A DNA stretch of 32,000 nt from Alkalilimnicola ehrlichii MLHE-1 (GTDB lineage Bacteria > Pseudomonadota > Gammaproteobacteria > Nitrococcales > Halorhodospiraceae). The translations under genes and the position numbers were made by a program. Within the stretch, counting starts at the first letter, position 1; the number at the start of each line of letters is the position of its first letter. Positions 2,667 to 20,078 of this stretch are shown piece by piece. Location of the stretch: NCBI RefSeq assembly GCF_000014785.1, contig NC_008340.1:2310001-2342000 (forward strand), read 5' to 3'. The notes beneath the pieces are model-generated. The model saw only the letters and a program-made list of their open reading frames with translations. It searched no databases and was not told the DNA's origin.

Positions 2667-3725
2667 ATGAGCTGTCCAGGTTGCGAGAAGGTCCCGAAGC
2701 AACCGCAGGGTGCGGGAACACTCTACATCCTGCCCGCCCAACCGCACGCGGCCGCCACCATCGTCGAGGCCCTGGTGGGCGACGGCCTGACGCCAGAGCA
2801 GCACGGCGACTCGATCCTAGCCGTGCCGGTGGAGCCCGGGGCGTTGAACCGGATCATGGCGCTGCTCGGCGGTGCCCTGACGCCACAGGAGCAGGCCGCC
2901 TGCCAGGCGAATTTCTTCGCCGACGGCGGCGACTGGTCCCCCGAGACGCTGCTGGCGACCCGCCCGCTGGACGTGCTGGTGGCGCGCAGTCAGTTTGTCT
3001 GGCTGAACGAACTGATCGAGGACCTGCGGCTGCAGATGCACTTTCAGCCCATCGTCCACGCCGATGATGGCCGCACGATCTTCGCCTACGAATCGCTGGC
3101 CCGCGGCCTGGACCACGCGGGGCAATTGATCTCCCCGGGCCGGCTCTTCCCCGCAGCGCGGGCGGCCAATCTCCTGTTTCACCTGGATCGGGCGGCACGC
3201 ATCAGCGCCATCCGACAATCCCACCAGCACCGTATCCAGCAGCCGGTGTTCATCAACTTCAATCCCACCGCCATCTACGACCCGGGCTTCTGCCTGCGTA
3301 CCACCTTCAAGGAGGTCCGGCGGCTGGGCATCGACCCGGCCAATTTCGTCTTCGAGGTGGTGGAGACCGACTCGGTGACCGACGAGACCCACCTCAAGTC
3401 CATCCTCGAGGAGTACCGCCGGCAGGGCTTTCGTATCGCACTGGATGACCTGGGGGCGGGATTCGGCTCACTGACACTGCTGAAACAGATCCGCCCCGAC
3501 TTCATCAAACTGGACCGGGAACTGGTGGACGGGGTGCACTGGGACAACTACAAGGCGTCCATCACCGCGCACCTGATCCGCATGGGCAAGGATCTGCAGG
3601 TCCGGATCATCGCCGAGGGCATCGAACAGCCGGAGGATTGGCACTGGCTGCGCGAGCGCGGCGTGGACTACGTCCAGGGTTTCCACTTCGCCCGGCCCGC
3701 CTCACCGCCTCCCGTCCTGGGCTGA
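2667..3725 (+). CDS. EAL-domain c-di-GMP phosphodiesterase with uncharacterised ~130-aa N-terminal domain
   Basis: EAL-domain signature residues are present: FQPIV, YESLARG (EAL variant ESL), INFNP, FEVVE, ALDDLGAGF, IKLD, IAEGIE and YVQGF. The N-terminus begins MSCPGCEK (CxxC). Confidence 0.85.
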   Translation: MSCPGCEKVPKQPQGAGTLYILPAQPHAAATIVEALVGDGLTPEQHGDSILAVPVEPGALNRIMALLGGALTPQEQAACQANFFADGGDWSPETLLATRPLDVLVARSQFVWLNELIEDLRLQMHFQPIVHADDGRTIFAYESLARGLDHAGQLISPGRLFPAARAANLLFHLDRAARISAIRQSHQHRIQQPVFINFNPTAIYDPGFCLRTTFKEVRRLGIDPANFVFEVVETDSVTDETHLKSILEEYRRQGFRIALDDLGAGFGSLTLLKQIRPDFIKLDRELVDGVHWDNYKASITAHLIRMGKDLQVRIIAEGIEQPEDWHWLRERGVDYVQGFHFARPASPPPVLG

Positions 3726-3739
3726 GGCCGCCCCGCACC

Positions 3740-5197
3740 TCAACCCAGTCCGTGGCGCCGCAGCTTGCGGTAAAGGGTCCGCTCACTCACCCCGAGCAGG
3801 CGGGCCAGGCTGGCCCGGTCGCCCTGATGCAGGGCCAGTGCCCGGCCCAGATAGTGCGCCTCCGCCTCCTCCAGGCTCAGCAGCTCGTCCTCCGGCAGCA
3901 CCGCAAGCCCCTGCCGCCCCCTGACCTCTGGTGACAGGTGCTCTGGCAGGATCTCCGGGCCGTCCGCCAGCAGGCTCGCACGCTCCAGGACATTGCGCAG
4001 CTCGCGGACATTGCCCGGAAAGTCATAGCCCTGGAGCTCCGCCAATGCCTCGTCGGAGAGATACCGCCCCTGGCCGTACTGCAGCCGGCGCAGGATGGCC
4101 TGACAGAGCAGCGGCAGGTCATCCAGCCGCGCGCGCAGTGGCGGCACATCGATGGGAAAGGTGGAGATCCGGTAGTAGAGGTCTTCGCGGAACTGGCCCT
4201 GCTCCACCATCCGCCGCAAGTCGCGGTGGGTGGCCGCCACGAGGCGGAAATCGGCCCGCCGCGGCTCGACACTGCCCACCCGGCGGAAGCTGCGAGTCTC
4301 CAGCAGGCGCAGCAGCTTGACCTGGAGGGCCAGGGGGATATCCCCCACCTCGTCGAGGAAGAGCGTCCCGCCCGAGGCCGCCTCCACCAGGCCGATCCGC
4401 GAGGAGACCGCACCGGTGAACGAGCCCTTCTCATGACCGAACAGCTCGCTCTCGAACAGGGTCTCGGTGAGCCCCGAGCAGTCCACCGGCACGAAAGGCG
4501 CCTCCTGGCGCAGGCTGGCCTGGTGCACGGCACGGGCCACCAACTCCTTGCCGGTCCCGGTCTCGCCCTGCAGCAGCACAGAGGCATCGCTGGGGGCGGC
4601 CCGGCTGATCAGCCCAAGCATCCGGTTGAAGGCGCGGCAGCGGCCGGTCAGCTCACCGCCGTTGGCCTGGGCACTGGCCACCGGCAGCCGGCGCAACACC
4701 TCAATAAAGAACTGCACCTGCCCGTCCGGCCCGGGGACCGGCCAGGTCTCCACATCCACGTGCTCCTGACCCTCAGGGCCATGATGGACGTGCAGCACCC
4801 GGTGCCGCCGCCCGGAGCGCAAGGACTCGCGCAGCGGACAGGCCTCACCGGCCTGGTCACAGGGGACGTTGTAGTGGTGGGAGACCTCGAAACAGCGCTG
4901 CCCCCGGTCGATGGGGGCATCGCCGTAGAGGCGTTGGTAGGCGTCGTTGGCCGCGACGATCACGTAGTCGAGGCCGATCAGGATGGCCGCCTCGTCAAAG
5001 GCCTCCAGCATCGCCCGCGCATCGGGCTGCCAGCGCCCGGTGCCCCCTGCCGTGCCCACCTGCTCCGGTAGCCGGCACTCACCCTCTTCCTTGAGCGGGC
5101 AGGGTTCCACCTCGGCATCCCGCAGGATGCATTGATCGGGGGCGTTGCGGGCACAGGGGCCACGAGGATCGTCACTCATGGCCCCATGATAGCCCAT
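3740..5197 (-). CDS. sigma-54-dependent transcriptional activator (Cys-rich N-terminus + PAS-like sensor, AAA+, Fis-type HTH)
   Basis: AAA+ motifs: Walker [15 protein letters not shown] (GAFTGA variant), Walker B LFLDEVG. C-terminal HTH: [21 protein letters not shown]. The track ORF extends to 5524 but would overlap cydB. ATG at 5197 sits 5 nt after GAAGGAGG and 17 bp downstream of the cydB stop. Confidence 0.88.
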
Positions 5198-5214
5198 TAC
5201 CCCCTCCTTCGGCC

Positions 5215-6216
5215 TCAGTGATAACCCTCGCCAGGGCGCACCTTGCCGCGGAAGACCCAGTAGGTCCAGGCGGTATACCCCATGACCACGGGCAGCAAGA
5301 GGAGCATGCCCACCAGCAGGAAGAGCTGGGCATCCGGGCTGGACGAGGCATCCCAGAAGGTGTGGTGCGGCGGCACCGCGTAGGGCCACATGCTGATCAG
5401 CAGACCCACGTAGAAGGTGGCAAACAGGGCCATGGCGGCAACGAAGGGCGTCCCCTCCTGGCGCTGCTGCAAGGCCCGCCACAACCAGTAGCTGACCAGC
5501 AGCGTCACCACCGGGAAGAGCCACAACCAGTTCAGGTTATCCAGCCACCGGCTCATGACCTCGGCATGGGCCAACGGGGTCCACAGGCTGACGATGACGA
5601 AGAAGGCCAACACGGCCAGGAGCGTACGGCTGGCGACCCGGCGTGCCCAGTCCTGCAGCTCCCCCTCGGTCTTCATGATCAGCCAGGTGGCGCCCAACAG
5701 CGCGTAGCCGGCCACCACGCCGAGACCGGTCATCACGACGAACGGCGTCAGCCAGTCCAGCGGACCGCCCACATAGGTGAAGCCTTCGGTCTCGAAACCC
5801 TGGATGTAGGCCCCGACCACGGCGCCCTGGGCGAAGGAGGCCACCCCGGAACCCAGGGTGAAGGCCCAGTTCCAGAAGGGCCGGGAACGGTTCGCCTTGG
5901 CCCGGAACTCGAACGCCACCCCGCGGAAGATCAAGCCCGCCAGAAGCAGGAAGACACCGATGTAGAGCGCCGGCAGAAAGACCGAGTAGACCAGCGGGAA
6001 GGCGCCCAGCAGGCCGGCACCACCCAGCACCAGCCAGGTCTCGTTGCCGTCCCACACCGGGGCCACCGAGTCCATCATCAGGTCACGCTCCTCCTCGCCG
6101 GGGGCGAAGGGATAGAGAATCCCCACGCCCAGGTCGAAGCCGTCGAGCAGGACGTACATGAACACGCCCAGCCCGATAATGGCAATCCAGACCAGAGTCA
6201 GATCAATCAATTCCAT
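5215..6216 (-). CDS. cydB: cytochrome bd-type quinol oxidase subunit II
   Basis: MELIDLTLVWIAIIGLGVFMYVLLDGFDLGVGIL...VAPVWDGNETWLVLGG are hallmark CydB motifs. ATG at 6216 is preceded by GGGAGG. The longer track ORF (to 6513) overlaps cydA and was trimmed. Confidence 0.9.
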   Translation of the reverse strand: MELIDLTLVWIAIIGLGVFMYVLLDGFDLGVGILYPFAPGEEERDLMMDSVAPVWDGNETWLVLGGAGLLGAFPLVYSVFLPALYIGVFLLLAGLIFRGVAFEFRAKANRSRPFWNWAFTLGSGVASFAQGAVVGAYIQGFETEGFTYVGGPLDWLTPFVVMTGLGVVAGYALLGATWLIMKTEGELQDWARRVASRTLLAVLAFFVIVSLWTPLAHAEVMSRWLDNLNWLWLFPVVTLLVSYWLWRALQQRQEGTPFVAAMALFATFYVGLLISMWPYAVPPHHTFWDASSSPDAQLFLLVGMLLLLPVVMGYTAWTYWVFRGKVRPGEGYH

Positions 6217-6223
6217 GGTGTTG

Positions 6224-7636
6224 TTACCTCCCGCTGGGCTGCGGCATCTCATCATCAAAAGTGGTACCGGCGGCGGACATCGGCCGCTTGGGGTGACCCC
6301 CTTCGCTGGGTGTCTCCACCTCAATCGCTTCCGGACCCTTGCGCACCACTCGGGTGACGTAATAGACGCCCGCACTGAAGACCACGGCGTAGACCGCCAC
6401 GTAGCCGATGAGCGAGAACAGGGCCATCCCCCCGGTAAGCGAGGGCGAGACCGCCTCCTCATACCGCATGATGCCGTGCACCACCCAGGGCATGCGCCCG
6501 ACCTCGGTGACAAACCAGCCGGACAGCACCGCCAGGAAGGGCGCGGGGATCATCCAGGAAAAGCCGCGCAGCAGCTTCTCAGACTCCCACAGGGTGCCAC
6601 GCCACTGCTTCCAGGCGCCCACCAGCGCCATCACGATCATCAGCAGGCCGATGCCCACCATGATGCGGAAGGCCCAGAAGACGATGGGCATATTGGGCCG
6701 GTCCTCCGGTGCCCAATCCTTCAGGCCGTGCACCTCGCCATCCAGGGAGTGGGTCAGGATCAGGCTGGCACCGTAGGGGATGCCGATCTCCATGAAGTTG
6801 CGCTCCTGCTCCATGCTCGGGATGGCGAAAAGCAGCAACGGCGCACCCGACTGGGTCTCCCAGGTGCCCTCCATGGCGGCCACCTTCTCCGGCTGATGCT
6901 CGAAGGTGTTCAGGCCATGGATGTCACCTACCACCAGCTGAGCCGGCGCAACGATGGCGAGCAGCACCAGGGTCATGCCCAGCGCCTTGCGCGACTCCAC
7001 CACCGCGCGGTCGCGGAGCAGATACCAGGCACTCACCCCCGCGACCACGAAACCGGCAGTCAGGAAGGAGGCCAATGCCATGTGGAAGAAACGCGGCCAG
7101 AAGGAAGGATTGAAGATCGCCTCCATCCAGGACGTTATCTGGAACACCCCGCCCTGAAGCTCAACGCCCGCCGGGGTTTGCATCCAGCTATTGGCCGAGA
7201 GGATCCAGAAGGATGAGATAAACGTCCCGATGGCCACCATGCAGGCCGCGAAAAGGTGTGTGCCCCGGGGCACTTTATTACGCCCGAAAAGCAGGATGCC
7301 CAGGAACACCGCCTCGAGGAAGAAGGCCGTGATCACCTCGTAGCTGAGGATAGGCCCAAGGAAATTGGCCGAGGCGTATGAGAACGCGCTCCAGTTCGTG
7401 CCGAACTGGAACGACATGACGATACCCGAAACCACGCCCATACCGAAGACCACGGCAAAGACCTGGGTCCAGAACTTGGCCAAGCGCTCGTACACGGGGT
7501 TGCCGGTGCGGTACAGCAGCCCCTCCAGGGCAGCGATGTACGATGCCAACCCGATGGTGAACACCGGGAATATGGCGTGGAAGGACACCACGAACCCGAA
7601 CTGTAGTCGGGACAGGAAAACCGGATCCAGCTCCAT
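6224..7636 (-). CDS. cydA: cytochrome bd-type quinol oxidase subunit I, short Q-loop (CIO-like length, ~470 aa)
   Basis: MELDPVFLSRLQFGFVVSFHAIFPVFTIGLA...GTNWSAF...EVITAFFLEAVFLG...NSWMQTPAG are CydA signatures. ATG at 7636 lies 6 nt after GGAGG. Its stop is 7 nt from the cydB start. Confidence 0.9.
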   Translation of the reverse strand: MELDPVFLSRLQFGFVVSFHAIFPVFTIGLASYIAALEGLLYRTGNPVYERLAKFWTQVFAVVFGMGVVSGIVMSFQFGTNWSAFSYASANFLGPILSYEVITAFFLEAVFLGILLFGRNKVPRGTHLFAACMVAIGTFISSFWILSANSWMQTPAGVELQGGVFQITSWMEAIFNPSFWPRFFHMALASFLTAGFVVAGVSAWYLLRDRAVVESRKALGMTLVLLAIVAPAQLVVGDIHGLNTFEHQPEKVAAMEGTWETQSGAPLLLFAIPSMEQERNFMEIGIPYGASLILTHSLDGEVHGLKDWAPEDRPNMPIVFWAFRIMVGIGLLMIVMALVGAWKQWRGTLWESEKLLRGFSWMIPAPFLAVLSGWFVTEVGRMPWVVHGIMRYEEAVSPSLTGGMALFSLIGYVAVYAVVFSAGVYYVTRVVRKGPEAIEVETPSEGGHPKRPMSAAGTTFDDEMPQPSGR

Positions 7637-7692
7637 TATCGACCTCCGTTGCAAAACTGCGATGCTGCAGCGAGCTGTTCGTCTGCAGCTTC

Positions 7693-7708
7693 AGCAAGTG
7701 CCATGCCA
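7693..7708 (-). promoter_or_regulatory. candidate sigma-54 (-24/-12) promoter of cydAB
   Basis: The minus strand reads TGGCAT-GGCAC-TTGCT. The consensus is TGGCAC-N5-TTGCW, so there is one mismatch, correct GG/GC spacing, and ~57 nt to the cydA ATG. A sigma-54 activator gene lies immediately downstream of cydB. Confidence 0.6.
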
Positions 7709-7812
7709 CCGTGCAGCCGCCTGAAAGCGATGCCTGATTCCGTTTCGGGATCATGGCCTTACAAAGGACCGCCCGGCCACCGGGTGGCCGTTTGACCCGA
7801 TCGACCTGTGGG

Positions 7813-7847
7813 ATATGACAGCCATGTGTGTCATATGGCTGTCATAT
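7813..7847. promoter_or_regulatory. 13-9-13 perfect inverted repeat, candidate upstream activator sequence
   Basis: ATATGACAGCCAT-gtgtgtcat-ATGGCTGTCATAT. The octamer TGTCATAT occurs three times (7813-7820 inverted, 7829-7836, 7840-7847). It lies ~105-140 bp upstream of the -24 element. A second perfect palindrome, GGCCACC-g-GGTGGCC, is at 7775-7789. Confidence 0.45.
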
Positions 7848-8023
7848 CTGACATGATCACTAAACTCCCGAACCATGGATAACAAACGGCCTGCCTACTG
7901 CCAGCACTGACTATCATAGTCTGCCCCGGCCTCCGCACGCCCCCCTCCTGCGACAATCGGACGCAGTGCGACTGCCACTAACGACAGAGACTCAGCGTAT
8001 CGCTCTGTTATCCAACCGGAGCG

Positions 8024-8845
8024 TCAACCGGAGAAGGTCCGGTGCAGCATGAGAAGCGCGGTGATCAGGAGGAACAGGGCGAAGGCCCTTCTGAGCTGCA
8101 CGGTATTGAGATGCATGGCCAGTCTCACGCCGTAAGGGGCACAGAGCACGGTGGTCGGGGCGATCAACAGGAACCCCAGCAGACTGACATAACCCACGCT
8201 GAACGGCGGCCGCTCCGGCACCCCCATCCCGGCCCAGAGAAAGCCGATCACCCCCGGGATGGAGATGATGCAACCAATGGCCGCGGCCGTCCCCACCGAT
8301 CGGTGCATGGGGAAGCGCAGCGCCTGGAAGATGGGCACGCTCAGGGTACCCCCGCCGATGCCCATCATGGTGGAGACCGTGCCCACAAAGCCGCCAATGG
8401 CGCCCCGGACCCAGGGTCCGGGGGCCCGCTCCGCCAGGTGCGGCGGCGGTGCGGCCCGGGCCATGTTGAGGGCCACCAGCAGCCCCACGAAGCCGAACAC
8501 CCCAGTGAGGACCGCACCGGACACCCGGGCGCTCAGCAGGATGCCGAGCACCACGCCGAGCAACAGCGTCGGCCACAGTTCCCTGAGCAAGGCCACGTCC
8601 ACTGTGCCGTTGCGGTGGTGGCTGATGGCCGAGCGCAGGGAGGTGGGGACCACCACCGCCAAAGAGGTCCCCACCGCCAGGTGCATCTGCACCGCCGGGT
8701 CGACCTCCAACAGGGTGAACACGTAGAAGAGCACCGGCACGATAACGATGCCGCCCCCGACCCCCAAGAGACCGGCCATGATACCGGCCACCACCCCAGT
8801 GCCCAGCAACCCCGCCGCAAGCAATGCCAACTCCGGTGCGGTCAT
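8024..8845 (-). CDS. TSUP/TauE-SafE family (DUF81) anion permease
   Basis: 273 aa, polytopic and Gly-rich, with the internally duplicated signature GLLGVGGGIVIVP ... MGIGGGTLSVP typical of TauE/SafE. Confidence 0.85.
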   Translation of the reverse strand: MTAPELALLAAGLLGTGVVAGIMAGLLGVGGGIVIVPVLFYVFTLLEVDPAVQMHLAVGTSLAVVVPTSLRSAISHHRNGTVDVALLRELWPTLLLGVVLGILLSARVSGAVLTGVFGFVGLLVALNMARAAPPPHLAERAPGPWVRGAIGGFVGTVSTMMGIGGGTLSVPIFQALRFPMHRSVGTAAAIGCIISIPGVIGFLWAGMGVPERPPFSVGYVSLLGFLLIAPTTVLCAPYGVRLAMHLNTVQLRRAFALFLLITALLMLHRTFSG

Positions 8846-10443
8846 AGCCCCGCCACGCCTCCATCGCTACGCGGATCGGATGCCGCCCGGACATGGCCCG
8901 CCCGGTCACGCACCAGGAGGCCGGCGTGGCCCATCGCACTGTTGCGGGGCGGCACCACCTCCACGTCGTGGCCACGGCCCCGCAGCGCTTCCACCAACTC
9001 CGGCGGGAAATCCGCTTCCAGCTTCAGCGTGTCCGTCCCGGCCCCCCAGGTCCTGCCCAACAGCCAGCGCGGCGAGGCCACCGCCTGCTCCGGTGATTGG
9101 CCGTAGAGGGCCACCCGGGTGAACACCGCCGCCTGGGTCTGCGGTTGGCCCTCCCCCCCCATGGTGCCGTATACCAGGGTACGGCCGTCATCCAGAACCG
9201 CCAGGGCCGGGTTCAGGGTATGGAAGGGACGGCGGCCCGGCTTGAGGTCATTCAGGGCATCGGGCGCGAGCGAGAAGCTGCAGCCCCGGTTCTGCCAGAT
9301 CACGCCGGTGTCGGGGACGACCACCCCGCTGCCGAACTCATGAAACAGGCTCTGGATGAAGCTGACACAGCGACCCTCGGCGTCGATGGCCCCCAGCCAT
9401 ACGGTGTCCCCCGGGGAGGCCGGCTGCGGCCAGGCCAGGGCGCGGCTCCAGTCCACCCGATCCGCCAAGGCGTCCAGCGCCTCCGGCTTCAGCCACTGCG
9501 CTGGATCCTCCGGCAGATAGGCGGGATCGGTGACAACGCGGTCCCGCACCAGGAAGGCCTGCTTGACTGCCTCCACCATGGCGTGCAACCACTCTGCGCT
9601 CTCCGCCGCTACCGGGTGGCGCCGCTGCAGCCGGTCAAAGACTCCGAGGATCATCAACGAGGCCAACCCCTGAGTGGGTGGCGGCATGTTCCACAGGGTG
9701 CCCAGGCTGTGCCTCATGTTCAGCGGTGCCACCCGGCGGGCGGCATAGCCCGCCAGGTCCGGGGCCCGTATCGGACTGCCCGCCTCGGCGAGGCCCTCAC
9801 CCAGCGCCTGTGCCAGCTCGCCGGAATAGAAGTCCGCCAGGCCGACCGCCGCCAGGCGTTCCAGGGTGCTGGCCAGCTCCGGCTGGCGGAACGTCTCGCC
9901 CGGGACGGGAAAGGCCCCGCCGGGCAAGTACTGGGCATCAAACCCCGGCTGCGGCCCCAGCTCCGGATGCTTGTCCCGGGTGGCCTCGGCCTGGCTATGG
10001 GTCATCGGGTACCCCTCTCGCGCATGCGCCACGGCGGGCGCCAGGAGCCGGTGCAGGGGCAGGCGCCCCGACCACTGCGAACGACTAAGCGCCAGCGCCA
10101 CCTGCCAGCCGGCCACCGTGCCGGCGACGGTGTTGGCGGCCGCCCCTCCGCGGCTAGGGATGACCGTCAGCCCCCGGTCGCGGTACCAGGCGGGTGTCGC
10201 ACCGACCGCCGCCGGGCCACAGGCCTCGATACCCAGGGGCGCCCTGCCCGGCTCGCGCAACAACCAGAAGCTGTCGCCCCCCAGGCCGTTCATGTGCGGA
10301 TAGACCACCGCAATCGCTGCGGCAGCGGCCACCATGGCCTCGATGGCATTCCCCCCTTCCCGCAGCACGCCGGCGCCCGCCTCGGCCGCCAGATGATGGG
10401 GTGCACTCACCGCCGCCCTCAGCGGCGTGTCATTGGCAAGCAT
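8842..10443 (-). CDS. gamma-glutamyltransferase-family Ntn hydrolase, no signal peptide
   Basis: NGLGGDSFWLL and GDTVWLGAIDAEGRCVS (autoprocessing Thr nucleophile context), plus TMGGEGQPQ. I prefer the ATG at 10443 (GGAGG 8 nt upstream) over the ORF-track start at 10500. The stop overlaps the TauE start by 4 nt (ATGA). Confidence 0.85.
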   Translation of the reverse strand: MLANDTPLRAAVSAPHHLAAEAGAGVLREGGNAIEAMVAAAAAIAVVYPHMNGLGGDSFWLLREPGRAPLGIEACGPAAVGATPAWYRDRGLTVIPSRGGAAANTVAGTVAGWQVALALSRSQWSGRLPLHRLLAPAVAHAREGYPMTHSQAEATRDKHPELGPQPGFDAQYLPGGAFPVPGETFRQPELASTLERLAAVGLADFYSGELAQALGEGLAEAGSPIRAPDLAGYAARRVAPLNMRHSLGTLWNMPPPTQGLASLMILGVFDRLQRRHPVAAESAEWLHAMVEAVKQAFLVRDRVVTDPAYLPEDPAQWLKPEALDALADRVDWSRALAWPQPASPGDTVWLGAIDAEGRCVSFIQSLFHEFGSGVVVPDTGVIWQNRGCSFSLAPDALNDLKPGRRPFHTLNPALAVLDDGRTLVYGTMGGEGQPQTQAAVFTRVALYGQSPEQAVASPRWLLGRTWGAGTDTLKLEADFPPELVEALRGRGHDVEVVPPRNSAMGHAGLLVRDRAGHVRAASDPRSDGGVAGL

Positions 10444-10633
10444 CGCCGTCGCCTCCAATCGATGGCCCGGCTCACCCGCACATGCAACGGTTATCAACAA
10501 GCCGGTCCGGGGTCGTGGTCAAGCACTCACGGTAGCGCATTTTTACGCAGGAGAGCGCGGCTTGCCCCCCAGGCCGCGACCGCACCTCTGGAATCGACTA
10601 TGATCGAATGACCATCGGCCGAAGGAGCCCGAA

Positions 10634-11783: not shown

Positions 11784-12926
11784 CTATAGCCCCTCGCGCA
11801 CCACGGCCCGGCGCAATGCGCGCTGGCGGCGCAGGATACTGCGAAAGGCGGCGCGCAACGCCGCGTACTCCCCCCGGCTCAGTGCCGCCACCGGGACCTG
11901 GTTGTGCAGCGGGCGGCCGGCGTCGATGGCCTCGGCGTGCAGGCGGGCGCGGATACCGGCGACAACCTGGTAGCCCTGTATCAGCGCGCCGGCCTCACCG
12001 CGGTCCAGCGTGCCCGCCCCGGCGGCCTGCTGCAGGCGCTCCAGGGTATGGTGGGCGGGCAGGCCCGCGCGCACGGCATAGACCCGGGCCAACTGCACCA
12101 ACGGCAGCAGCCCGCCCTGTTTCAGATCCACCCGGCCCGCATTCGCACCCCACCAGGGGGTCCAGACCCGCCCCAGGCCATGCCACGGTGGGCGCGGCCG
12201 CGTCGCCCCATCGCTCAGCCGGGCGAGGAACCGGCGGTTGCTCGCCGCCCGCTCCAAGGCCTCCCGGCGTACGGGCTCAAACAGGGCCGGATCGCCGGCC
12301 ACCACCCGCAGATCCAGGTAATGGGTGGCCAGCATCACCGCCTTGCGTCCCGGGGCCTCAATGACTGTGAGCAGCGCCCGCCGCCAACTGCCGACGCTGC
12401 GCCGCCAATCACCATTCGCCGGACTGACGCCGCCCGGGCAATGCGGCAAGCCACAGGCCGCCAGCCCTTCCGTCACCCGCCCCGCCAGGCGCCGGTACCA
12501 GTCGTCGGCCCCCGGCGGGAGATCATCCCCATAGACCAGGGCATTATCCTGATCCGTGTGCACGGTCTGCTCACCCCGCCCCTGGGAGCCGCACGCGAGC
12601 CAGGCCCACGGCCCCGGCGCCGGCGTCCCCATTTCCGCCTCCGCGAGGACAATCAACCGCCGGGTCAGGGCGTCCACCCAACCGCTGACGATCCGGGCCT
12701 GGGTCACCGCGTCCCTGCCGGAGCGCTGCAGCGCGGCCTGACCCTCGGGGAAGCGGCCCGCAACGGCCTGGATGGCCGCCAGGTCCGATGCCTGCTCCAG
12801 AGCCCGCCCCAAACCCGTGCCCTCCGCACCGGTCCCTGCCGTTGCCCCGCTACCGGCACCTGATTCACTGGCGCCCGGAGCCCCTTGGTCCTGCGTCTCA
12901 TCCACAACACCCACCTCCCTGAACAC
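11784..12926 (-). CDS. DUF294-type putative nucleotidyltransferase (no sensor domains) with low-complexity Gly/Ala N-terminus
   Basis: LACGSQGRGEQTVHTDQDNALVY is a pol-beta-type GS-x-GR-x-E...DxD motif. The C-terminal half is collinear with the DUF294_C region of the two paralogs at 15293 and 20469. The start (GTG 12926) is uncertain. Confidence 0.75.
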   Translation of the reverse strand: MFREVGVVDETQDQGAPGASESGAGSGATAGTGAEGTGLGRALEQASDLAAIQAVAGRFPEGQAALQRSGRDAVTQARIVSGWVDALTRRLIVLAEAEMGTPAPGPWAWLACGSQGRGEQTVHTDQDNALVYGDDLPPGADDWYRRLAGRVTEGLAACGLPHCPGGVSPANGDWRRSVGSWRRALLTVIEAPGRKAVMLATHYLDLRVVAGDPALFEPVRREALERAASNRRFLARLSDGATRPRPPWHGLGRVWTPWWGANAGRVDLKQGGLLPLVQLARVYAVRAGLPAHHTLERLQQAAGAGTLDRGEAGALIQGYQVVAGIRARLHAEAIDAGRPLHNQVPVAALSRGEYAALRAAFRSILRRQRALRRAVVREGL

Positions 12927-13064
12927 GGCACTGCCCGGCAGCGCCCCTGGGCTGCAGCTTACTCACCTTTCAGGGGCTTCCGCTATGGCCCCACGGCGCT
13001 GCGTACCACCCCGAATCGGCACAGGACGGCGCCCAGCCCCCCCGGTGGTCCGCCCGCCGCTCAT

Positions 13065-13089
13065 AAAAAAAGCCCGCCGGATGGCGGGC
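13065..13089 (-). terminator. rho-independent terminator after the symporter gene
   Basis: The minus strand reads GCCCGCC-atcc-GGCGGGC followed by TTTTTTT, 67 nt past the symporter stop codon. Confidence 0.8.
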
Positions 13090-13107
13090 TTAAGCGTTCA
13101 GTCGGGT

Positions 13108-13136
13108 GGTTGCCGCACCCGGGGGGTGCGGCAACC
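13108..13136 (-). terminator. additional 13-bp GC hairpin directly after the symporter stop
   Basis: ggttgccgcaccc-ggg-gggtgcggcaacc. There is no U-tract. It may be a stabilising or attenuating stem preceding the true terminator. Confidence 0.45.
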
Positions 13137-13155
13137 CAATCGCAGAAGTTAGCGA

Positions 13156-14937
13156 TCAGTCGGCGCGCGGCACACGCACGCTCTCCACCAGCTTCTGGAT
13201 CTCGGCCGGCGGCGGCGCGGTCATCTTCGCCACGGCGAAGGAGACAATGCCGTTCGCCACGGCGCCGATCACACCGAATGCGGCCGGGTTGATACCGAAC
13301 AGCCAGTACTCGGCGGTGTCCGGCAGCAGGGCCAGCTGCGGGAAGAACAGGAAGCCCTTGTAGGTGAAGACGTAACCCAGGGTCACGATCAGACCCGCCA
13401 GCATGCCGGCGATGGCCCCTTCGCGGTTCATCTTCCGGTAGAAGATGCCCATCATCAGGGTCGGGAAGAGGCTGGCCGCGGCGAGACCGAAGGCCAGCGC
13501 CACCACCTCGGCCGCGAAGCCTGGTGGGTTCAAGCCCAGATACCCCGCGAAGATAATGGCGACGGCCATGGAGATACGGGCCGCGAGCATCTCGTTCTTC
13601 TCGCTGATATCGGGTTTGAACACGCCTTTGAGCAAGTCGTGCGAAACCGCCGAGGAGATGGCCAATAGCAGACCGGCCGCGGTGGACAGCGCCGCCGCGA
13701 TACCACCCGCCGCCACCAGGGCGATCACCCAGGTCGGCAGACCGGCGATCTCCGGGTTGGCCAGCACGATGATGTCACGGTCCAGGTTGGTGATCTCCGA
13801 GCCTTCCCAGCCCCACTGCTCGCGGGCCATCTGGTCGAACTCCGCATTGCCGTCGTTGTAGTACTGGATACGGCCGTCGTTGTTCTTGTCCTCCCACTGC
13901 AGCAGACCGGTCTGCTCCCAGCGGTACATCCAGTCGGGCAGGTCCTCATACCGGGTGTGGGCCTCAGCCTCACCGATGCTGTGGCGGTCCACCAGCACGG
14001 TGTCGAGCAGGTTCCACATCGCCATGGCACCCACAGCCGGGGCGGTGGTGTAGAGCAGGGCGATAAAGACCAGGGACCAGCCGGCGGACTTACGCGCGTC
14101 GCGGATACGCGGCACGGTGAAGAACCGGATGATCACGTGCGGCAGACCTGCGGTACCGATCATCAGGGAGATGGTCAGCAGGAACATGTTGAGCATGTTG
14201 AAGCCGCCCTCGGTGGCCGAGTAGGCCGCAAAGCCCAAGTCCACCAGGGTCTGGTCCAGCGCCTCCAACAGATAGGTGTCGGAGCCGGCGAGGGTGCTGC
14301 CGAGACCGATCTGCGGGATCGGCACGCCGGTGATGGCGATGGCGATGAAGACCGCCGGGACGGTGTAGGCGAAGATCATCACGCAGTACTGGGCGATCTG
14401 GGTATAGGTGATACCCTTCATACCGCCGAACACAGCGTAGATGAACACCACCACCATGCCGGAGATCAGGCCCACGGTCAGCGGCACCTCCAGGATGTTG
14501 GAGAAGGCGATACCGACGCCGCGCATCTGGCCGATAACGTAGGTGATGGAGATGGCCAGCAGGCAGATGACCGCAATCACCCGCGCCGTCTTCGAGTAGA
14601 ACCGGTCGCCGATGAACTCGGGCACCGTGAACTTACCGAACTTACGCAGGTAGGGGGCCAGCAGCAGGGCCATCAACACGTAGCCACCGGTCCAGCCCAT
14701 CAGGAAGGCGCCACCCGTAAAGCCCAGGAAGGCAATCAGGCCGGCCATGGAGATGAAGCTGGCGGCGGACATCCAGTCAGCGGCCGTGGCCATGCCGTTG
14801 GCGACGGGGTTGACCCCCTTGCCGGCCACGTAGAACTCGCTGGTGCTACCGGTGCGGGCCCAGATCGCGATACCGATGTAGAGCGCGAAGGTGAGACCCA
14901 CCACGGTCAGGTTGAGTATCTGTTGAGATCCTTCCAT
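13156..14937 (-). CDS. sodium:solute symporter (SSS) large subunit, ActP/VC_2705-like
   Basis: 593 aa and polytopic. The N-terminus EFYVAGKGVNPVANGMATAADWMSAASFISMAGL is typical of the acetate/monocarboxylate SSS clade. It follows a DUF4212 small-subunit gene by 12 bp. Confidence 0.9.
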   Translation of the reverse strand: MEGSQQILNLTVVGLTFALYIGIAIWARTGSTSEFYVAGKGVNPVANGMATAADWMSAASFISMAGLIAFLGFTGGAFLMGWTGGYVLMALLLAPYLRKFGKFTVPEFIGDRFYSKTARVIAVICLLAISITYVIGQMRGVGIAFSNILEVPLTVGLISGMVVVFIYAVFGGMKGITYTQIAQYCVMIFAYTVPAVFIAIAITGVPIPQIGLGSTLAGSDTYLLEALDQTLVDLGFAAYSATEGGFNMLNMFLLTISLMIGTAGLPHVIIRFFTVPRIRDARKSAGWSLVFIALLYTTAPAVGAMAMWNLLDTVLVDRHSIGEAEAHTRYEDLPDWMYRWEQTGLLQWEDKNNDGRIQYYNDGNAEFDQMAREQWGWEGSEITNLDRDIIVLANPEIAGLPTWVIALVAAGGIAAALSTAAGLLLAISSAVSHDLLKGVFKPDISEKNEMLAARISMAVAIIFAGYLGLNPPGFAAEVVALAFGLAAASLFPTLMMGIFYRKMNREGAIAGMLAGLIVTLGYVFTYKGFLFFPQLALLPDTAEYWLFGINPAAFGVIGAVANGIVSFAVAKMTAPPPAEIQKLVESVRVPRAD

Positions 14938-14949
14938 TGTTCTATAGCC

Positions 14950-15234
14950 TCAGTCTTCGTAGACGTCGTATTCGCGATCCAGTTTGTTCATGCGCCAGGC
15001 ATAGAAGAAGATGATCACGAGGAACACGTAGATCGAGCCTTGCTGCGCGAACCAGAACCCGAGCGGATAGCCGCCGATGCTGAAGTTATTCAGCCAGTCG
15101 GCGAGCAACACGCCGAGTACCAGCGAGACAAACGCCCAGACGACCAGGCAACCCCCAATGATCTTGAGGTTCTTTCGCCAGTATTCGCCTCTGTCTTTTG
15201 TCACCTGATTTTCCGAATCAGACATGGATGACAC
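14950..15234 (-). CDS. DUF4212 small subunit of Na+/solute symporter
   Basis: 94 aa with two TM helices. It carries the motif GGYPLGFWFAQQGSIYVF...YAWRMNKLD characteristic of the family that pairs with VC_2705-type symporters. GAGGAG lies upstream of the ATG. Confidence 0.85.
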   Translation of the reverse strand: MSSMSDSENQVTKDRGEYWRKNLKIIGGCLVVWAFVSLVLGVLLADWLNNFSIGGYPLGFWFAQQGSIYVFLVIIFFYAWRMNKLDREYDVYED

Positions 15235-15292
15235 TCCTCTTTCCTAGGATTAAAGGATGATTCGGCAATTCCCTTTGCAGTGCTTACGGCCG

Positions 15293-17284
15293 TTACAGTT
15301 GATACTCCGAAGTGAGTTTTGATTGTAGTTTCCTCGCCTCGCGAAATGCCTCCTTGAGAATCTTTTTATCCAGTTCATTGAGTTCGTTGGGTGAAACATG
15401 ATTGCTGAGCGGCTTCCCGGCCGCTGCCTGCTCCTGGTGCTGCCGGGTGCGCAGCACCTGAATATAGTGGTAGGCGATAACCCACGCCTCCACATCCCCC
15501 CGGACCAGGGCACCGGCCTCGGCCGCCTGCTCCAGGCGGTCCACCGTGTTGGTGGCCGGGAGCCGGTGGGCCAGGGAAAAGATACGCGCCGCGTCCACGA
15601 AGGGCGTGACGCCGTTGAGCTTGAGGTCGATGACGTTGCGCTGATCACCGTGGGTTCGGGTGACGAAATCGCGGATCACCCCCAGCGGGGGCCGGTTGCG
15701 CAGGGCGTTGGCCGCCATCTGCTTGCGGAACCGGCTGTTGCGTGAAGTCCGCTCCAGCAACCAGGTCCGAAGCCCCTCGGCCCCGCCGGTGGGCCCGTGG
15801 ATGACCCGGAAGTCGAAAAAGATGGCGGCCTTGAGCAGGTGCTCCGGTGTCCCCTGGTCGATCCAGCGCTTGAAGCGCTGCTGCCACTCCTCCAGCGACA
15901 GGCAGCACTCCGGGTTGCCGGCCATGATGTTGCCGGGGCAGAGGGGATAGCCGCAGCGGTCCAGGGCCTGGTTGATGCGCTGGGCGACCGGCACCAGCCG
16001 CGCACGGATGGCGTCGGCATCGGGGCCGTCGTCATCGACCATGAACAGGATGCCGTTGTCCTGGTCGGTTTTCAGGGTCTGTTCCTGTCGCCCTTCGCTG
16101 CCGAAGGCGATCCAGCAAAAGTCGATATCGGAGACGTCATCATCGGCCTCGGCCAGGCAGAGCTGGATGATGCGCTCACCGATATGATCGTTGAGCAGGG
16201 TGATCATCTGCATGATCTGCGCGACCTTGACCCCCTGGTCGATCATCTGCCCGACCAGGCGGTGGATGTCCGCCTGCAGCGGCGCCAGGGCCTCGACACT
16301 GGCCGCCCGACGGATGCTGCGGGTGAGATTGACCAACCCCACCCGTTGCAGCGTGAACAGGTCGCGCTCGGAGATCACCCCCTGCAGGCGGCCCCGCTCC
16401 ACCACACAGACGTGGTGGATGCCGTGCTGCGCCATGACCATGGCCGCCTCGAAGGCGAAGGCCGACCGCGGCATGGATACCGGGTCGGAGGTCATCACCT
16501 CGCGCATGGGGCGATCGAGCGGCACCTGGGGCAGGGCCACCCGGCGCAGCAGGTCGTGCAGGGTAAAGACCCCCAGTGGGCGAAGCCGGTCATCGGTGAC
16601 GACAATGCTCCCCACCCGCTGGGTATCCATGGCCTGCAACGCTTCTTTTATTGTGGTCTCCTCCCGGCAGGTCACCGGTTCCCGCCGCAGCCGCTCGCCC
16701 AGCGGGATGTCCAGCGAGGTGTCGCCGTTGCCCAGCCCCTTCACCTCCTGGCTCTGATACTGGGCCAGTAGTTGGTCCAGCATGGTGGAGAGGCGCCGGG
16801 TGCAGAAGGCATGAAACTCCTCCGACACGTGCAGCAAATGGGTAAAGTCGCCTTCCTCGAGTTCGAGGCAGGTGGTCTCCTCCAGGGCGCGATGGATGGT
16901 CCGCGCCGGCTTGCCGGTCACCAGGGCGCCCACCGGGAAGCACTCACCCGCGCGCAATTCCCAGACGTTGCCCGCCTCTTGATCGTCACCCCGCGGCGAC
17001 TCCCCGCCCACCCGGCCGGAACGAATGATAAACAGCCGGTCGACAGGGCCGCGGTCGGGATGGGTCAGCGCCTCGCCCCGGGCATAGACACGGATGGCCA
17101 AGCGGTCCACCAGATAGCCCAAGTGCTCATCGGTCATGTCGTCGAAGGGCGCATACTGGCGAAGAAAGACCCGCACGTCGCCCCGATCGGACGCTGCGCC
17201 CTGCTCCGCCTTGTTGTGTTGGTCGTCGCCCATCTTTATGCCACTGCGCGCTGAAAGTACGGCAGGGAGACTTGCAGAAGTCAT
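15293..17284 (-). CDS. cNMP-binding + CBS pair + DUF294 nucleotidyltransferase signal-transduction protein
   Basis: An N-terminal CAP-effector-like fold (RGEALTHPDRGPVDRLFIIRSGRV...ELRAGECFPVGAL) is followed by two CBS motifs, then IAFGSEGRQEQTLKTDQDNGILF and a DUF294_C tail. An alternative start at 17233 is possible; neither start has a clear SD. Confidence 0.85.
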   Translation of the reverse strand: MTSASLPAVLSARSGIKMGDDQHNKAEQGAASDRGDVRVFLRQYAPFDDMTDEHLGYLVDRLAIRVYARGEALTHPDRGPVDRLFIIRSGRVGGESPRGDDQEAGNVWELRAGECFPVGALVTGKPARTIHRALEETTCLELEEGDFTHLLHVSEEFHAFCTRRLSTMLDQLLAQYQSQEVKGLGNGDTSLDIPLGERLRREPVTCREETTIKEALQAMDTQRVGSIVVTDDRLRPLGVFTLHDLLRRVALPQVPLDRPMREVMTSDPVSMPRSAFAFEAAMVMAQHGIHHVCVVERGRLQGVISERDLFTLQRVGLVNLTRSIRRAASVEALAPLQADIHRLVGQMIDQGVKVAQIMQMITLLNDHIGERIIQLCLAEADDDVSDIDFCWIAFGSEGRQEQTLKTDQDNGILFMVDDDGPDADAIRARLVPVAQRINQALDRCGYPLCPGNIMAGNPECCLSLEEWQQRFKRWIDQGTPEHLLKAAIFFDFRVIHGPTGGAEGLRTWLLERTSRNSRFRKQMAANALRNRPPLGVIRDFVTRTHGDQRNVIDLKLNGVTPFVDAARIFSLAHRLPATNTVDRLEQAAEAGALVRGDVEAWVIAYHYIQVLRTRQHQEQAAAGKPLSNHVSPNELNELDKKILKEAFREARKLQSKLTSEYQL

Positions 17285-17349
17285 GCCAGAAATTGCGAGC
17301 CCAGCAATCAGCGGCTTGGCGCGGGGGTGCAGCGGGCGGTGTCACGCAA

Positions 17350-17410
17350 GGTAACAAGCTGTCACCGTTGGTGACGCGAACCCTTGCCACGGTAGGTAAC
17401 GGAGGGTAAC
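17350..17410. promoter_or_regulatory. repeat-rich intergenic segment (possible internal promoter/operator)
   Basis: Perfect palindrome GTCACC-gtt-GGTGAC (17361-17375) flanked by three GGTAAC hexamers (17350, 17395, 17405) in the 131-bp gap between the sensor-exonuclease and DUF294 genes. Confidence 0.3.
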
Positions 17411-17415
17411 GGGGA

Positions 17416-19560
17416 TCAGGTGCGGGAGGACTCCATCCCCTCGCCCTGTGCACTGAAGACCGCGGAGCGGTGGCGGAGTTCCGCGGCCATCCGCGAGGCC
17501 TTCATCACCTCGCCGAACGTCTGGTAGCCCTGCGCCTCCAGCCGCTCAATGATACGAACCAGCAGCTCGGCGGTGGCCAGGGTATCGCCCAGAGCGGTGT
17601 GACGGCCGGTGATGGCAATGCCGTAGCGGTCGCACAGCGCGTCCAGCGAGTGGTCCTCCTCATCACCGTCCAGCAGGGCCGAGAGCAGCAGGGTGTCGAG
17701 CACCGGATTATCGAAGCGCACCCCGGCCTCGCGCTCCTTCATGCTGATGAACTTCATATCGAAGGCGGCATTGTGCGCCACCAGGACGGCGTCCCCCACG
17801 AAGGATTTAAACTGGGGCAGCACCACCTCGATGGGCGGCTTGTCCTGCACATCGTCGTCGGTGATGCCGTGGAAGCGCACGGAGCCAGGCGGGATGGGGC
17901 GTCCCGGATTGATGATTCGGTCAAAGGTCTCACCGGTCAGTACCCGGCCGTTCACCACCCGGACCCCGGCGATGGAGATGATCTCATCGCCCCCCTCGGG
18001 GTTCAGCCCGGTCATCTCGCAATCGAACACCACGAAACTCAGGTCGGCCAGCCGCCGGGCCGCCAGGGCCTCGTCCCCGGCATACTCCTGCATCAGCCCG
18101 AAGTCGTAGAACTCGGGCCGTGCCGGCAGCCGCTCCTCCTCCTCCATGAACTGGGGCCGGCGGGACATCATCAGCGGCAAGCGCAACAAGGCCTGCCCCT
18201 CGCGCCTGCCCGTCTGGCTCCAGGGCTCACAGCCATGCCGCTCCAGGATATCCCCCAGGTGCTGGCCGCCCACCTCATCGCCGCCGCAGGGGATCGCCAT
18301 CCAGCGGTTCAGCTCGCCGGTAGTGATCGGCTCGCCCTGCCAGCTGATGTCCACGTACACCCGGGTATCGCCCAGCAACGCCTCCACATCGAAGGCCGTC
18401 GCGCCGGTATGGTCATGCACCTGTCGCACCAGGCAATCCAGCGCCAGCATCAGTGAAAGGCTGTCGCCATGGACCCAGAGCGGCAGCCCCACCAGGGTCA
18501 ACCGGACGTCCGGGAGGTCCATCAGCCGCTGCTGCAGGCAGTTGACCAGATCCCCCACGAAGACGTCGGCCATGGGCCACCGCCCCAGGTTGTAGCCCCG
18601 GATCTGGTGGGCCAGCTCGTCGATCTGCTCGCTCAGCTTCTCACTCTCGCTGCGAATGACGGCATCGAACGACTGGCGCTCCTCCGGCTTCATGTCCGGA
18701 TAGCTGGCCACGGTCTCCGCGGCGGCGCGCAGGTTGCCCACCACGCCACGCAGGTCGCGGGTGAGCGCCCGGCGCACGGCGTCACCCTGGGCCAGTCGGG
18801 TGAGATCGCTGGAGATGTCCACCAGGGTGATGAGATAACCGGTAATCTGGCCCTGGCTGTTCTGAATCAAGGCCATGCGCCCATGGAACATGCGCTGGGC
18901 ATCGGCGCTGGTGCAGACGAAGGGGGCGGAGAGTTCCGTCGGCAGGTCCACATCGCCCTTGTGGCGGCGCTCCAGGCGCTCCAGGGTGTGCTGCACCGGC
19001 GGACTGGAGAGCACGTTGAACAGGGGGCGGCCGAGACCGATGGCCTCCGGGTGTCCGAGGATAGTCCCGGCCGCCCGGTTGTAGAGCATGATCTGGTGCT
19101 GGCGGTTGCAGACCAGCACCCCTTCGCTGAGTCCCTGCAGGATGGTCTCCAGCCAGGTCTTCTGCTCGGAGAGTTCGGCGGTGGCCGATTGCATGGCCTT
19201 GCGGGTCTCTCGCCGCGACTTGCGCAACGCATCGGCCAGTGACTCCACCGTGGTCGGCAGGTCCCCGAGGGCATGGCGCCGGGGGAGGATGATCTCCTGG
19301 TTCGCCTGGCGGGATTCCAGCAGCGCCCGGACCCCGCGGCTGAGCTTCCGGGAGGGCCGCATCAACAGGCGCTCCAGCAAGAGCCAGCTGACCAGCCCGA
19401 CGGCCACCACCCCAAGTACCCCGAGGCTGGCCACCAGCGCGGTGTTATCGGTGCCCCCCGGCTCGCTGGGCGTGACGCTGTAGACCGCGAGCACCACTAT
19501 GGCGGCGGCGACGGCAACTGCGCCCGTCAGGACCCAGGTGACGAAGGGCCGCTGCCGCAT
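17416..19560 (-). CDS. membrane HAMP-PAS sensor with degenerate histidine-kinase-like core fused to C-terminal DEDDh (DnaQ/PolIII-epsilon-like) 3'-5' exonuclease
   Basis: Two N-terminal TM helices with a ~13-aa loop, then a HAMP-length linker and a PAS-like segment (LSEGVLVCNRQHQIMLYNRAAGTILG). The H-box position reads LTRDLRGVV, where HisKA has SHELRTPL. There are no clear N/G boxes. Exo motifs are intact: FDCEMTG, VAHNAAFDMKF, HTALGDTLATAEL. Confidence 0.85.
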   Translation of the reverse strand: MRQRPFVTWVLTGAVAVAAAIVVLAVYSVTPSEPGGTDNTALVASLGVLGVVAVGLVSWLLLERLLMRPSRKLSRGVRALLESRQANQEIILPRRHALGDLPTTVESLADALRKSRRETRKAMQSATAELSEQKTWLETILQGLSEGVLVCNRQHQIMLYNRAAGTILGHPEAIGLGRPLFNVLSSPPVQHTLERLERRHKGDVDLPTELSAPFVCTSADAQRMFHGRMALIQNSQGQITGYLITLVDISSDLTRLAQGDAVRRALTRDLRGVVGNLRAAAETVASYPDMKPEERQSFDAVIRSESEKLSEQIDELAHQIRGYNLGRWPMADVFVGDLVNCLQQRLMDLPDVRLTLVGLPLWVHGDSLSLMLALDCLVRQVHDHTGATAFDVEALLGDTRVYVDISWQGEPITTGELNRWMAIPCGGDEVGGQHLGDILERHGCEPWSQTGRREGQALLRLPLMMSRRPQFMEEEERLPARPEFYDFGLMQEYAGDEALAARRLADLSFVVFDCEMTGLNPEGGDEIISIAGVRVVNGRVLTGETFDRIINPGRPIPPGSVRFHGITDDDVQDKPPIEVVLPQFKSFVGDAVLVAHNAAFDMKFISMKEREAGVRFDNPVLDTLLLSALLDGDEEDHSLDALCDRYGIAITGRHTALGDTLATAELLVRIIERLEAQGYQTFGEVMKASRMAAELRHRSAVFSAQGEGMESSRT

Positions 19561-19982: not shown

Positions 19983-20048
19983 GGCTCCTCCCGAAACCTT
20001 ACGCCGCCCGGGCCCTGCTTGGGGGAACCCGTTGGTTCAGCGATTATC

Positions 20049-20078
20049 GCTATAGTTTCTGGCTATAGTTTTCCAGAA
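20049..20078. promoter_or_regulatory. tandem 10-bp direct repeat plus overlapping inverted repeat in divergent promoter region
   Basis: GCTATAGTTT occurs at 20049-20058 and 20062-20071 (13-bp period). TTCTGG-N10-CCAGAA spans 20057-20078. The site is ~70-95 bp upstream of the receiver gene and ~125 bp upstream of the 83-aa ORF. Confidence 0.35.

Follow-up and report, generated by a model that had tools for sequence, protein, structure and literature searches.

We analysed a 32-kb window of the Alkalilimnicola ehrlichii MLHE-1 genome (NC_008340.1, positions 2,310,001 to 2,342,000), the whole stretch of DNA considered here, which carries the genes of a cytochrome bd oxidase together with a gene coding for a sigma-54 enhancer-binding protein (EBP). 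The three genes form a tightly packed cluster, cydA-cydB-EBP (window 7636..3740), on the minus strand, as do all features described below unless stated otherwise. The first gene, cydA (6224..7636), encodes a bd oxidase subunit I of 470 residues (Pfam Cyt_bd_oxida_I, E = 3e-164). CydA aligns with subunit I of E. coli bd-II, AppC (PDB 7ose_A, E = 2e-87), and the AppC heme-ligand and proton-channel residues His19, Glu99, Glu107, His186 and Met393 are identical in the window protein. Approximately 55 residues of the Q-loop are missing from CydA, which places it among the short-Q-loop bd oxidases. The second gene, cydB (5215..6216), starts 7 nt after the cydA stop codon and encodes a subunit II of 333 residues (Pfam Cyt_bd_oxida_II, E = 4e-99; TIGR00203). 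Judged by sequence, cydA and cydB code for genuine bd oxidase subunits.

The EBP gene (3740..5197; 485 codons) begins with an ATG at position 5197 and is separated from the cydB stop codon (5217..5215) by a spacer of 17 nt (5198..5214) that contains the Shine-Dalgarno sequence GGAGGGGG. A terminator scan of positions 3500..8200 revealed no terminator-like site between cydB and the EBP gene. Three weak terminator-like hairpins were detected in the scanned region, all inside the coding sequence of cydB or cydA, the cydA one on the opposite strand, and their number did not exceed that obtained with shuffled sequence. No sigma-70-like site was found in 3500..8200 either, in a simple scan that may miss weak or non-canonical promoters. 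An earlier note on this DNA had described a complete sigma-54 activator gene with a strong Shine-Dalgarno sequence, located 17 bp past the cydB stop and with no terminator in between, and we found each of these elements in place.

Upstream of cydA, on its coding strand, lies the sigma-54 (-24/-12) promoter sequence TGGCATggcacTTGCT (7693..7708), with 56 nt between the box and the cydA ATG at position 7636; this is the TGGCAT-N5-TTGCT motif to which the earlier note had drawn attention. Nowhere else in the 32 kb is TGGCAYN5TTGCW matched exactly; shuffled sequences gave a mean of 0.07 matches, and 6 out of 100 shuffles contained any match. The position of the -24/-12 element predicts a transcription start at around 7682-7683. 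Two further sites with one mismatch (17273..17288 and 24821..24836) were rejected, being no more than expected by chance; the former also overlaps a start codon. In the closest related locus, designated L001, whose EBP is 86% identical to that of the window, the counterpart TGGCATacggcTTGCT is found at the same distance from the cydA ATG, although its N5 spacer and flanking nucleotides differ. The predicted cydA 5' untranslated region (UTR; 7637..7682), which carries a GGAGG Shine-Dalgarno sequence, is unusually conserved relative to L001. The last ~63 aligned columns, covering the 5' UTR and the first cydA codons, contain three substitutions, against an identity of 45-70% over the remaining intergenic DNA. 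Scanning the full 32 kb against Rfam gave no match, so the conserved 5' UTR corresponds to no known RNA family; it may be an element of translational or RNA-level control.

Further upstream we identified two candidate activator binding sites. The proximal one, TGTCAGATATGACA (7840..7853), fits the consensus TG[TC]CA-N4-TG[AG]CA, which we call the FisR-family box for reasons given below, and is a predicted upstream activator sequence (UAS). Centred 138 nt upstream of the -24 element, at about -162 from the predicted start, this box is the only TGYCAN4TGRCA match in the 32 kb, against 0.14 expected. The distal box-like site, TGTCGTTAGTGGCA (7973..7986), has one mismatch to the consensus and its centre 271 nt before the -24 element begins. 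The L001 equivalents, TGCCAAAAATGACA and TGCCGTCATTGGCA, are located 139 and 272 nt upstream of its -24 element; the box sequences themselves differ between the two loci while their distances from the promoter match. A sigma-54 consensus upstream of the gene and candidate distal activator sites are both present in the window, and both features are conserved in L001. In the alignment of the two loci, the boxes, the -24/-12 element and the 5' UTR stand out as conserved islands against the diverged intergenic background.

The proximal box is part of an array of TGTCA/TGACA half-sites (7807..7853) containing a 22-nt imperfect inverted repeat and a perfect inverted repeat with 13-nt arms, ATATGACAGCCAT (7847..7835) and ATGGCTGTCATAT (7825..7813). 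Within the array, an 11-bp tandem repeat (7824..7845; plus strand ATGTGTGTCAT / ATGGCTGTCAT) duplicates a box half-site and amounts to one extra helical turn inside the UAS compared to L001. A separate GC-rich perfect palindrome, GGCCACC-C-GGTGGCC (7775..7789, no strand assigned), was also observed. The palindromes that the earlier note had placed upstream of the promoter are thus all present, 67-145 nt upstream of the -24 element, but the GC-rich one is not conserved in L001; for this reason we dropped it from the system, and it probably lies outside. By eye, no convincing match to the IHF consensus WATCAANNNNTTR was seen between the boxes and the promoter. A 14-nt block of the same intergenic region, CCGATTGTCGCAGG (~7947..7960), is perfectly conserved in L001 too. 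L001 additionally carries a gene for an AsnC/Lrp-family regulator on the opposite strand between tauE and cydA (4691..5134 of L001); a search for a remnant of this gene in the corresponding region of the window (7860..8023) found no trace.

To which family does the activator belong? Pfam domains PAS_4 (residues 64-169), Sigma54_activat (E = 3e-67), AAA_lid_14 and HTH_8 give the EBP the three-domain architecture of FisR. Along the protein, an extension containing four cysteines (residues 1-52) is followed by a PAS-like sensor domain (53-175), an AAA+ domain (184-349) with the Walker A motif GETGTGKE, and a Fis-type helix-turn-helix (HTH; 441-481). The AlphaFold model (mean pLDDT 82) is confident over residues 53-485 and shows a PAS-like fold for residues 53-175, then the AAA+ and HTH domains. 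The sensor domain contains a cysteine loop, C102-x10-C113-x6-C120 (codons 4838..4894). A homology search returned thousands of full-length relatives with ~60% identity, mainly from sulfur-oxidising Gammaproteobacteria and Betaproteobacteria (Thioalkalivibrio, Thiohalomonas, Ectothiorhodospiraceae and Nitrosomonadales), and the C-x10-C-x6-C motif was present in the N-terminal domain of all of the top 120, the set in which it was checked.

Searching plasmids and chromids (PLSDB) with the sensor domain by tblastn identified a homologue on the megaplasmid of Cupriavidus metallidurans CH34, encoded divergently from genes for a persulfide dioxygenase (pdo) and a sulfide:quinone reductase (sqr). We used this orthologue as a congeneric proxy for the FisR of C. 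pinatubonensis, a characterised sigma-54 activator that responds to sulfane sulfur and induces the pdo-sqr genes of sulfide oxidation; the window EBP is 52% identical to it over 431 residues (E = 4e-137). C102, C113 and C120 of the EBP align with cysteines 53, 64 and 71 of the CH34 protein, the last of which Li and colleagues reportedly described in 2017 as the third sensory residue of FisR. In C. pinatubonensis FisR, a tetrasulfide links Cys53 and Cys64 (PMC9495516), and three conserved cysteines have been described for FisR (PMC9774590). Searched as a profile against PDB sequences, the sensor domain gave only weak PAS/LOV matches (E > 0.02) and no solved FisR sensor domain. On its architecture, cysteine loop and homology, we conclude that the EBP is a member of the FisR family of sulfane-sulfur sensors. 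The class of regulator, which the earlier note had not named, is thereby known, and its likely signal is sulfide.

To place the cluster in a wider context, one genome per species was scanned with the sensor-domain alignment, which yielded more than 545 loci; the 80 best were retained. Neighbouring open reading frames were clustered for 84 related loci and representative sequences annotated. The classical FisR layout, in which the regulator is divergent from pdo-sqr, dominates the family: pdo neighbours the EBP in 38 of the 84 loci and an sqr-family gene in 34, the majority within pdo-sqr(-sulP) operons that run divergently, often with sulP following. The EBP gene has cydA or cydAB no more than 6 kb away in 18 of the 84 loci. 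On a neighbour-joining tree these cyd-linked EBPs fall into at least seven separate clades, interspersed with pdo-sqr-linked EBPs. Such scattering indicates that the linkage arose repeatedly, which argues for a functional connection between this type of regulator and the oxidase.

The cyd-linked loci show four arrangements. In the first, the EBP is divergent from cydA-cydB-pdo-sqr (L011, Zhongshania aquimaris; L074, Spongiibacter pelagi; L083, Azoarcus taiwanensis); in two further divergent loci (L067 and L072), cydA-cydB are followed by pdo. In the second, it is divergent from cydAB alone, with or without a preceding cydP (L016, L027, L032 from Oceanospirillum sanctuarii, L039, L054, L057, and L073 from Hydrogenophaga taeniospiralis). 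In the third, cydA follows pdo-sqr-sulP (L023, L055 and L048). The fourth is the same-strand order cydA-cydB-EBP, found in the window, in L001 and L033, and also in L086 from Thioalkalivibrio sp. ALM2T. The cydB-EBP gap is 13 nt in L001 and 67 nt in L086, and L001 retains the gamma-glutamyltranspeptidase and tauE-family genes found upstream in the window. In L033 and L086, a gene of the sulfide:quinone reductase (SQR) family is divergent from cydAB-EBP across a shared regulatory region, which ties the gene arrangement of the window to sulfide. Paralogues in T. nitratireducens (L002) and T. sulfidiphilus (L003/L004) were also inspected and are not beside cyd.

We then read the -24/-12 region in the 15 related loci where cydA or cydP-cydA directly follows the regulatory region, and in L086. 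A -24/-12-like element leading into cydA, or into the small cydP gene (NF045611), was present in 15 out of 15 of these loci and in L086; examples are TGGCATgtgcaTTGCT (L011), TGGCACaggcgTTGCT (L074) and TGGCATggccgTTGCT (L027), and the same-strand relatives carry TGGCACgatacTTGTT (L033) and TGGCACggtacTTGTT (L086). At L032 and L057 the -24 position reads GGGCAT in place of TGGCAY. Orientation was tallied over 82 loci: in 37 the element faces away from the EBP gene, in 5 toward it. The consensus TG[TC]CA-N4-TG[AG]CA was itself derived from the 82 loci, whose regulatory DNA (47 kb) holds 55 copies (1.16 per kb), compared to 16 in 836 kb elsewhere (0.019 per kb), an enrichment of about 60-fold. 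Distances from the boxes to the promoter are closely similar in the two same-strand relatives with a divergent SQR-family gene, at 95, 126, 149 and 185 nt in L033 and 97, 128, 151 and 187 nt in L086. L086 contains a second sigma-54-like element, TGGCATgcaacTTGTA, facing the divergent sqr, so that elements stand on both strands around shared boxes and one set of boxes may serve both operons. As side observations on this locus, the -12 element reads TTGT rather than TTGC, and the SQR-family gene, which encodes a TAT signal, precedes cydD and another ABC-transporter gene that is presumably cydC (1..4524 of L086).

The earlier note had suggested looking among relatives for conservation of cydAB-EBP synteny and of the -24/-12 box; the linkage recurs and the element is kept. 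Its central proposal, that cydAB is expressed from a sigma-54 promoter under the adjacent EBP, is likewise supported by the conservation in L001, the -24/-12 elements of the relatives, the family box and the recurrent linkage.

These observations suggest a sulfide-responsive, FisR-driven and RpoN-dependent cydAB operon, and we put the probability of the full mechanism at roughly 65%. In this model, accumulation of sulfide or polysulfide would lead sulfane sulfur to cross-link the three cysteines of the PAS-like domain of the EBP, as in Cupriavidus FisR. The activated EBP would bind the TG[TC]CA-N4-TG[AG]CA boxes ~160 and ~295 bp upstream of the start site, and its ATP hydrolysis would open the sigma-54 holoenzyme complex at TGGCAT-N5-TTGCT (7708..7693). 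Transcription would proceed from ~7682 through cydA and cydB and, given the 17-nt gap and the lack of a terminator-like site, carry on into the EBP gene, creating positive feedback; co-transcription and positive autoregulation of the EBP are thus probable. The short-Q-loop bd oxidase would keep respiration going and re-oxidise the quinol made by SQR while heme-copper oxidases are poisoned. The cell would probably thereby switch on a sulfide-resistant oxidase when sulfide appears. The analysis itself shows the sequence elements, their conservation, the family to which the EBP belongs and its recurrent linkage to cyd; the binding of the EBP, the dependence on RpoN, the inducing signal, co-transcription and the sulfide resistance of the window oxidase are inferred. 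The model agrees with published observations that bd oxidases are refractory to sulfide and that cydAB is induced by sulfide in A. baumannii, E. coli and M. tuberculosis (PMC7315123). In A. baumannii, Walsh et al. predict a link between SQR and CydAB via the quinone pool, with cydAB induction left without an assigned regulator (PMC7315123).

Several observations weigh against this model. An activator that depended wholly on itself could not start its own loop, so basal expression would be needed, and our scan of 3500..8200 detected no internal promoter for basal EBP expression. Nor is basal read-through from the tauE operon likely in L001, where the AsnC-family gene on the opposite strand intervenes. 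It is conceivable that the EBP is expressed mainly from a weak constitutive promoter of its own, within or after cydB, with no real autoregulation and with the close spacing reflecting gene packing. In its favour, a wholly self-dependent activator could not start the loop, the regulator is divergent and has its own promoter in most family members, and the cydB-EBP gap of L086 measures 67 nt. Against it stand the short gaps of the window (17 nt) and of L001 (13 nt) and the scans of 3500..8200, which showed no terminator-like site between cydB and the EBP gene and no sigma-70-like site, though weak or non-canonical promoters may escape so simple a scan. We consider this arrangement somewhat unlikely, and it would be compatible with the sulfide-responsive operon proposed above.

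A second group of observations concerns what the EBP senses. The window contains no pdo, sqr, sulP or yeeE gene, so that the case for sulfide is drawn from the regulator family and from the relatives. The N-terminal extension of 52 residues with four cysteines is absent from characterised FisR proteins and could change what the EBP senses. In addition, the three cysteines are dispensable for FisR function in A. baumannii (PMC7315123), which leaves some doubt about the chemistry of sensing in this family. Within the extension (5042..5197), C15, C23, C33 and C41 are kept in the three closest homologues (P0001-P0003) while the residues between them vary. The extension is found in the window clade and is absent from all other family members, matches no Pfam family and is modelled with pLDDT below 50, too low for a usable structure; at the nucleotide level, the first 34 EBP codons differ from those of L001 at two positions. 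A single comparison gave weak similarity between the extension and the FisR cysteine loop (E = 0.02), and the extension could be a degenerate duplication of the loop, or a metal or redox site.

The same promoter and activator logic might therefore serve another signal, such as oxygen, redox state, NO, cyanide or a metal, perceived through the PAS-like domain, the four-cysteine extension or both, as a response to hypoxia or to respiratory poisons. The clade-specific cysteines, which may form a metal or Fe-S site, the absence of sulfide-oxidation genes from the window and the dispensability of the three cysteines in one FisR protein would all fit this explanation, and bd oxidases are classically induced by low oxygen and resist NO and cyanide as well. 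Against it, the window EBP keeps every invariant residue of a 26-sequence sensor-domain alignment of which it is itself a member, its nearest relatives of the same architecture (L033 and L086) carry an SQR-family gene across the same regulatory region, and pdo-sqr is the dominant neighbour across the family. We therefore regard a signal other than sulfide as unlikely.

Two further points weigh against the sulfide-responsive operon. The sigma-54 contact loop of the EBP reads GSFTGA (residue 258), an Ala-to-Ser variant of the canonical GAFTGA, which is shared by one (P0093) of nine homologue sequences inspected. The box consensus is our own derivation from the 82 loci. It is very improbable that the -24/-12 match and the palindromes are chance occurrences or remnants, with cydAB transcribed from an unrecognised sigma-70 promoter under ArcA/FNR/ANR-like control and the EBP acting elsewhere: an exact match does arise by chance in 6 of 100 shuffles of the 32 kb and classical cyd/cio regulation is sigma-70 based, yet the promoter and both boxes keep their positions in L001 despite a diverged background, 15 other related loci have the same combination ahead of cydA or cydP, the scan of 3500..8200 showed no sigma-70-like site, and the only FisR box of the window sits exactly at the cydA regulatory region.

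Control of cydAB and cioAB is classically exerted at sigma-70 promoters, by ArcA and FNR in E. coli, CydR in Azotobacter, and ANR and RoxSR in Pseudomonas. The window operon encodes the same kind of enzyme and would follow the same logic, bringing in a bd oxidase when heme-copper oxidases are limited or poisoned, but unlike systems governed by such global redox or oxygen regulators it has a dedicated, operon-encoded AAA+ activator and a sigma-54 promoter. A closer parallel is the FisR-pdo-sqr system of Cupriavidus pinatubonensis JMP134, which Li and colleagues reportedly described in 2017. With this system and its A. baumannii counterpart (PMC7315123), the window shares the regulator family (a PAS-like R domain with three cysteines, AAA+ and Fis-type HTH domains), a sigma-54 -24/-12 element at the target promoter, upstream palindromic boxes that recur across the family and, as in A. 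baumannii, a nearby tauE gene. It differs in its target, which is a bd oxidase and not a persulfide dioxygenase and sulfide:quinone reductase, in the placement of the regulator as the last gene of its target operon instead of divergently, and in the additional four-cysteine extension and GSFTGA loop of the EBP. The proposed logic also resembles that of NorR with norVW/hmp, where a sigma-54 EBP directly senses a respiratory poison and switches on adjacent protective genes. NorR, in contrast, uses a GAF domain with non-heme iron to sense NO and activates a detoxifying reductase, whereas the window EBP would use a cysteine-containing PAS-like sensor to activate a poison-resistant oxidase.

In the literature examined, induction of cydAB by sulfide was observed in E. 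coli and A. baumannii with no dedicated sulfide sensor assigned. A review from August 2026 describes the regulons of sulfur-species sensors, FisR included, as comprising SQR, PDO, persulfide reductase, sulfurtransferases and transporters including TauE and YedE/YeeE. Our full-text searches, in which subscription journals were thinly covered, found no paper linking a FisR-type or any other sigma-54 activator to cydAB. The claim of the earlier note that this architecture had gone undescribed agrees with these searches, but the architecture is widespread and by no means unique to the window. What is known, then, is the FisR family, sigma-54 promoters and sulfide-resistant bd oxidases; what would be new is a known class of sensor wired to cydAB and, in some lineages, encoded inside its target operon.

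Several other features of the window and of the related loci were recorded. Directly upstream of the cyd promoter region lies a gene for a putative sulfite exporter of the tauE/safE family (8024..8845; Pfam TauE, E = 1.5e-49). Its synteny is kept in L001, and we treat it as context, with no membership of the regulon implied; in A. baumannii, tauE is a member of the FisR operon (PMC7315123). A gamma-glutamyltranspeptidase gene overlaps the tauE-family gene by 4 nt (8024..10500 for the pair, minus strand), an arrangement also kept in L001, and the pair hints at a tie to the handling of glutathione (persulfide) and sulfite. Further along the minus strand (11784..21926) are three paralogues of a DUF294/DUF294_C nucleotidyltransferase, one bare, one with CBS domains and one with cNMP-binding and CBS domains. 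A sodium:solute symporter (13156..14937) and a fusion of PAS and RNase T exonuclease domains (17416..19560) are encoded among them, which makes this sensor-nucleotidyltransferase neighbourhood unusually repeated.

In T. sulfidiphilus (L003/L004, 9326..14701), a FisR-like paralogue precedes two unannotated proteins, cytochromes c and a flavocytochrome c sulfide dehydrogenase, and the DNA between the paralogue and this cluster contains the element TGGCATggcctGTGCA and CGCCATATTTGGC(G/A)G repeats. FisR-like EBPs of Rhodocyclales and Comamonadaceae are found divergent from ccoG/fixG-like genes (Fer4_18 and FixG_C), from genes for Rieske iron-sulfur proteins, or from both (L040, L042, L047, L049, L053, L060, L071, L076, L079 and L084, at ~3500..5900 in each). 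A Rieske gene also lies between cydB and pdo in L072. Neighbours of this kind suggest that FisR-type sensors may control further components of the respiratory chain.

Taken further, FisR-type sensors might be general, direct regulators of terminal oxidase choice in environmental Proteobacteria, with cydAB (and, in Rhodocyclales, ccoG and Rieske genes) belonging to the core sulfide regulon. In the window clade, the operon might then act as a self-amplifying, possibly bistable switch, to which the four-cysteine extension could add an oxygen or redox input as a second sensor of a metal, an Fe-S cluster or redox state. We offer this as speculation and think it improbable. The same or variant arrangements occur in cultured organisms, among them Thioalkalivibrio sp. 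ALM2T, Hydrogenophaga taeniospiralis, Zhongshania aquimaris, Spongiibacter pelagi, Azoarcus taiwanensis and Oceanospirillum, which makes the arrangement readily testable.

The locus and its relatives offer a candidate sulfide sensor for a cyd promoter, and because the activator is of the FisR type, the promoter of the sigma-54 class and the DNA box definable, the link from sulfide to the oxidase is open to direct test. If the proposed mechanism is correct, the FisR regulon would extend from sulfide detoxification to the remodelling of the respiratory chain, and sigma-54 would join the known modes of bd oxidase control. The finding also suggests a compact module of SQR and a bd oxidase leading from sulfide to oxygen, of relevance to the ecology of the sulfur cycle and to sulfide-removal bioreactors.

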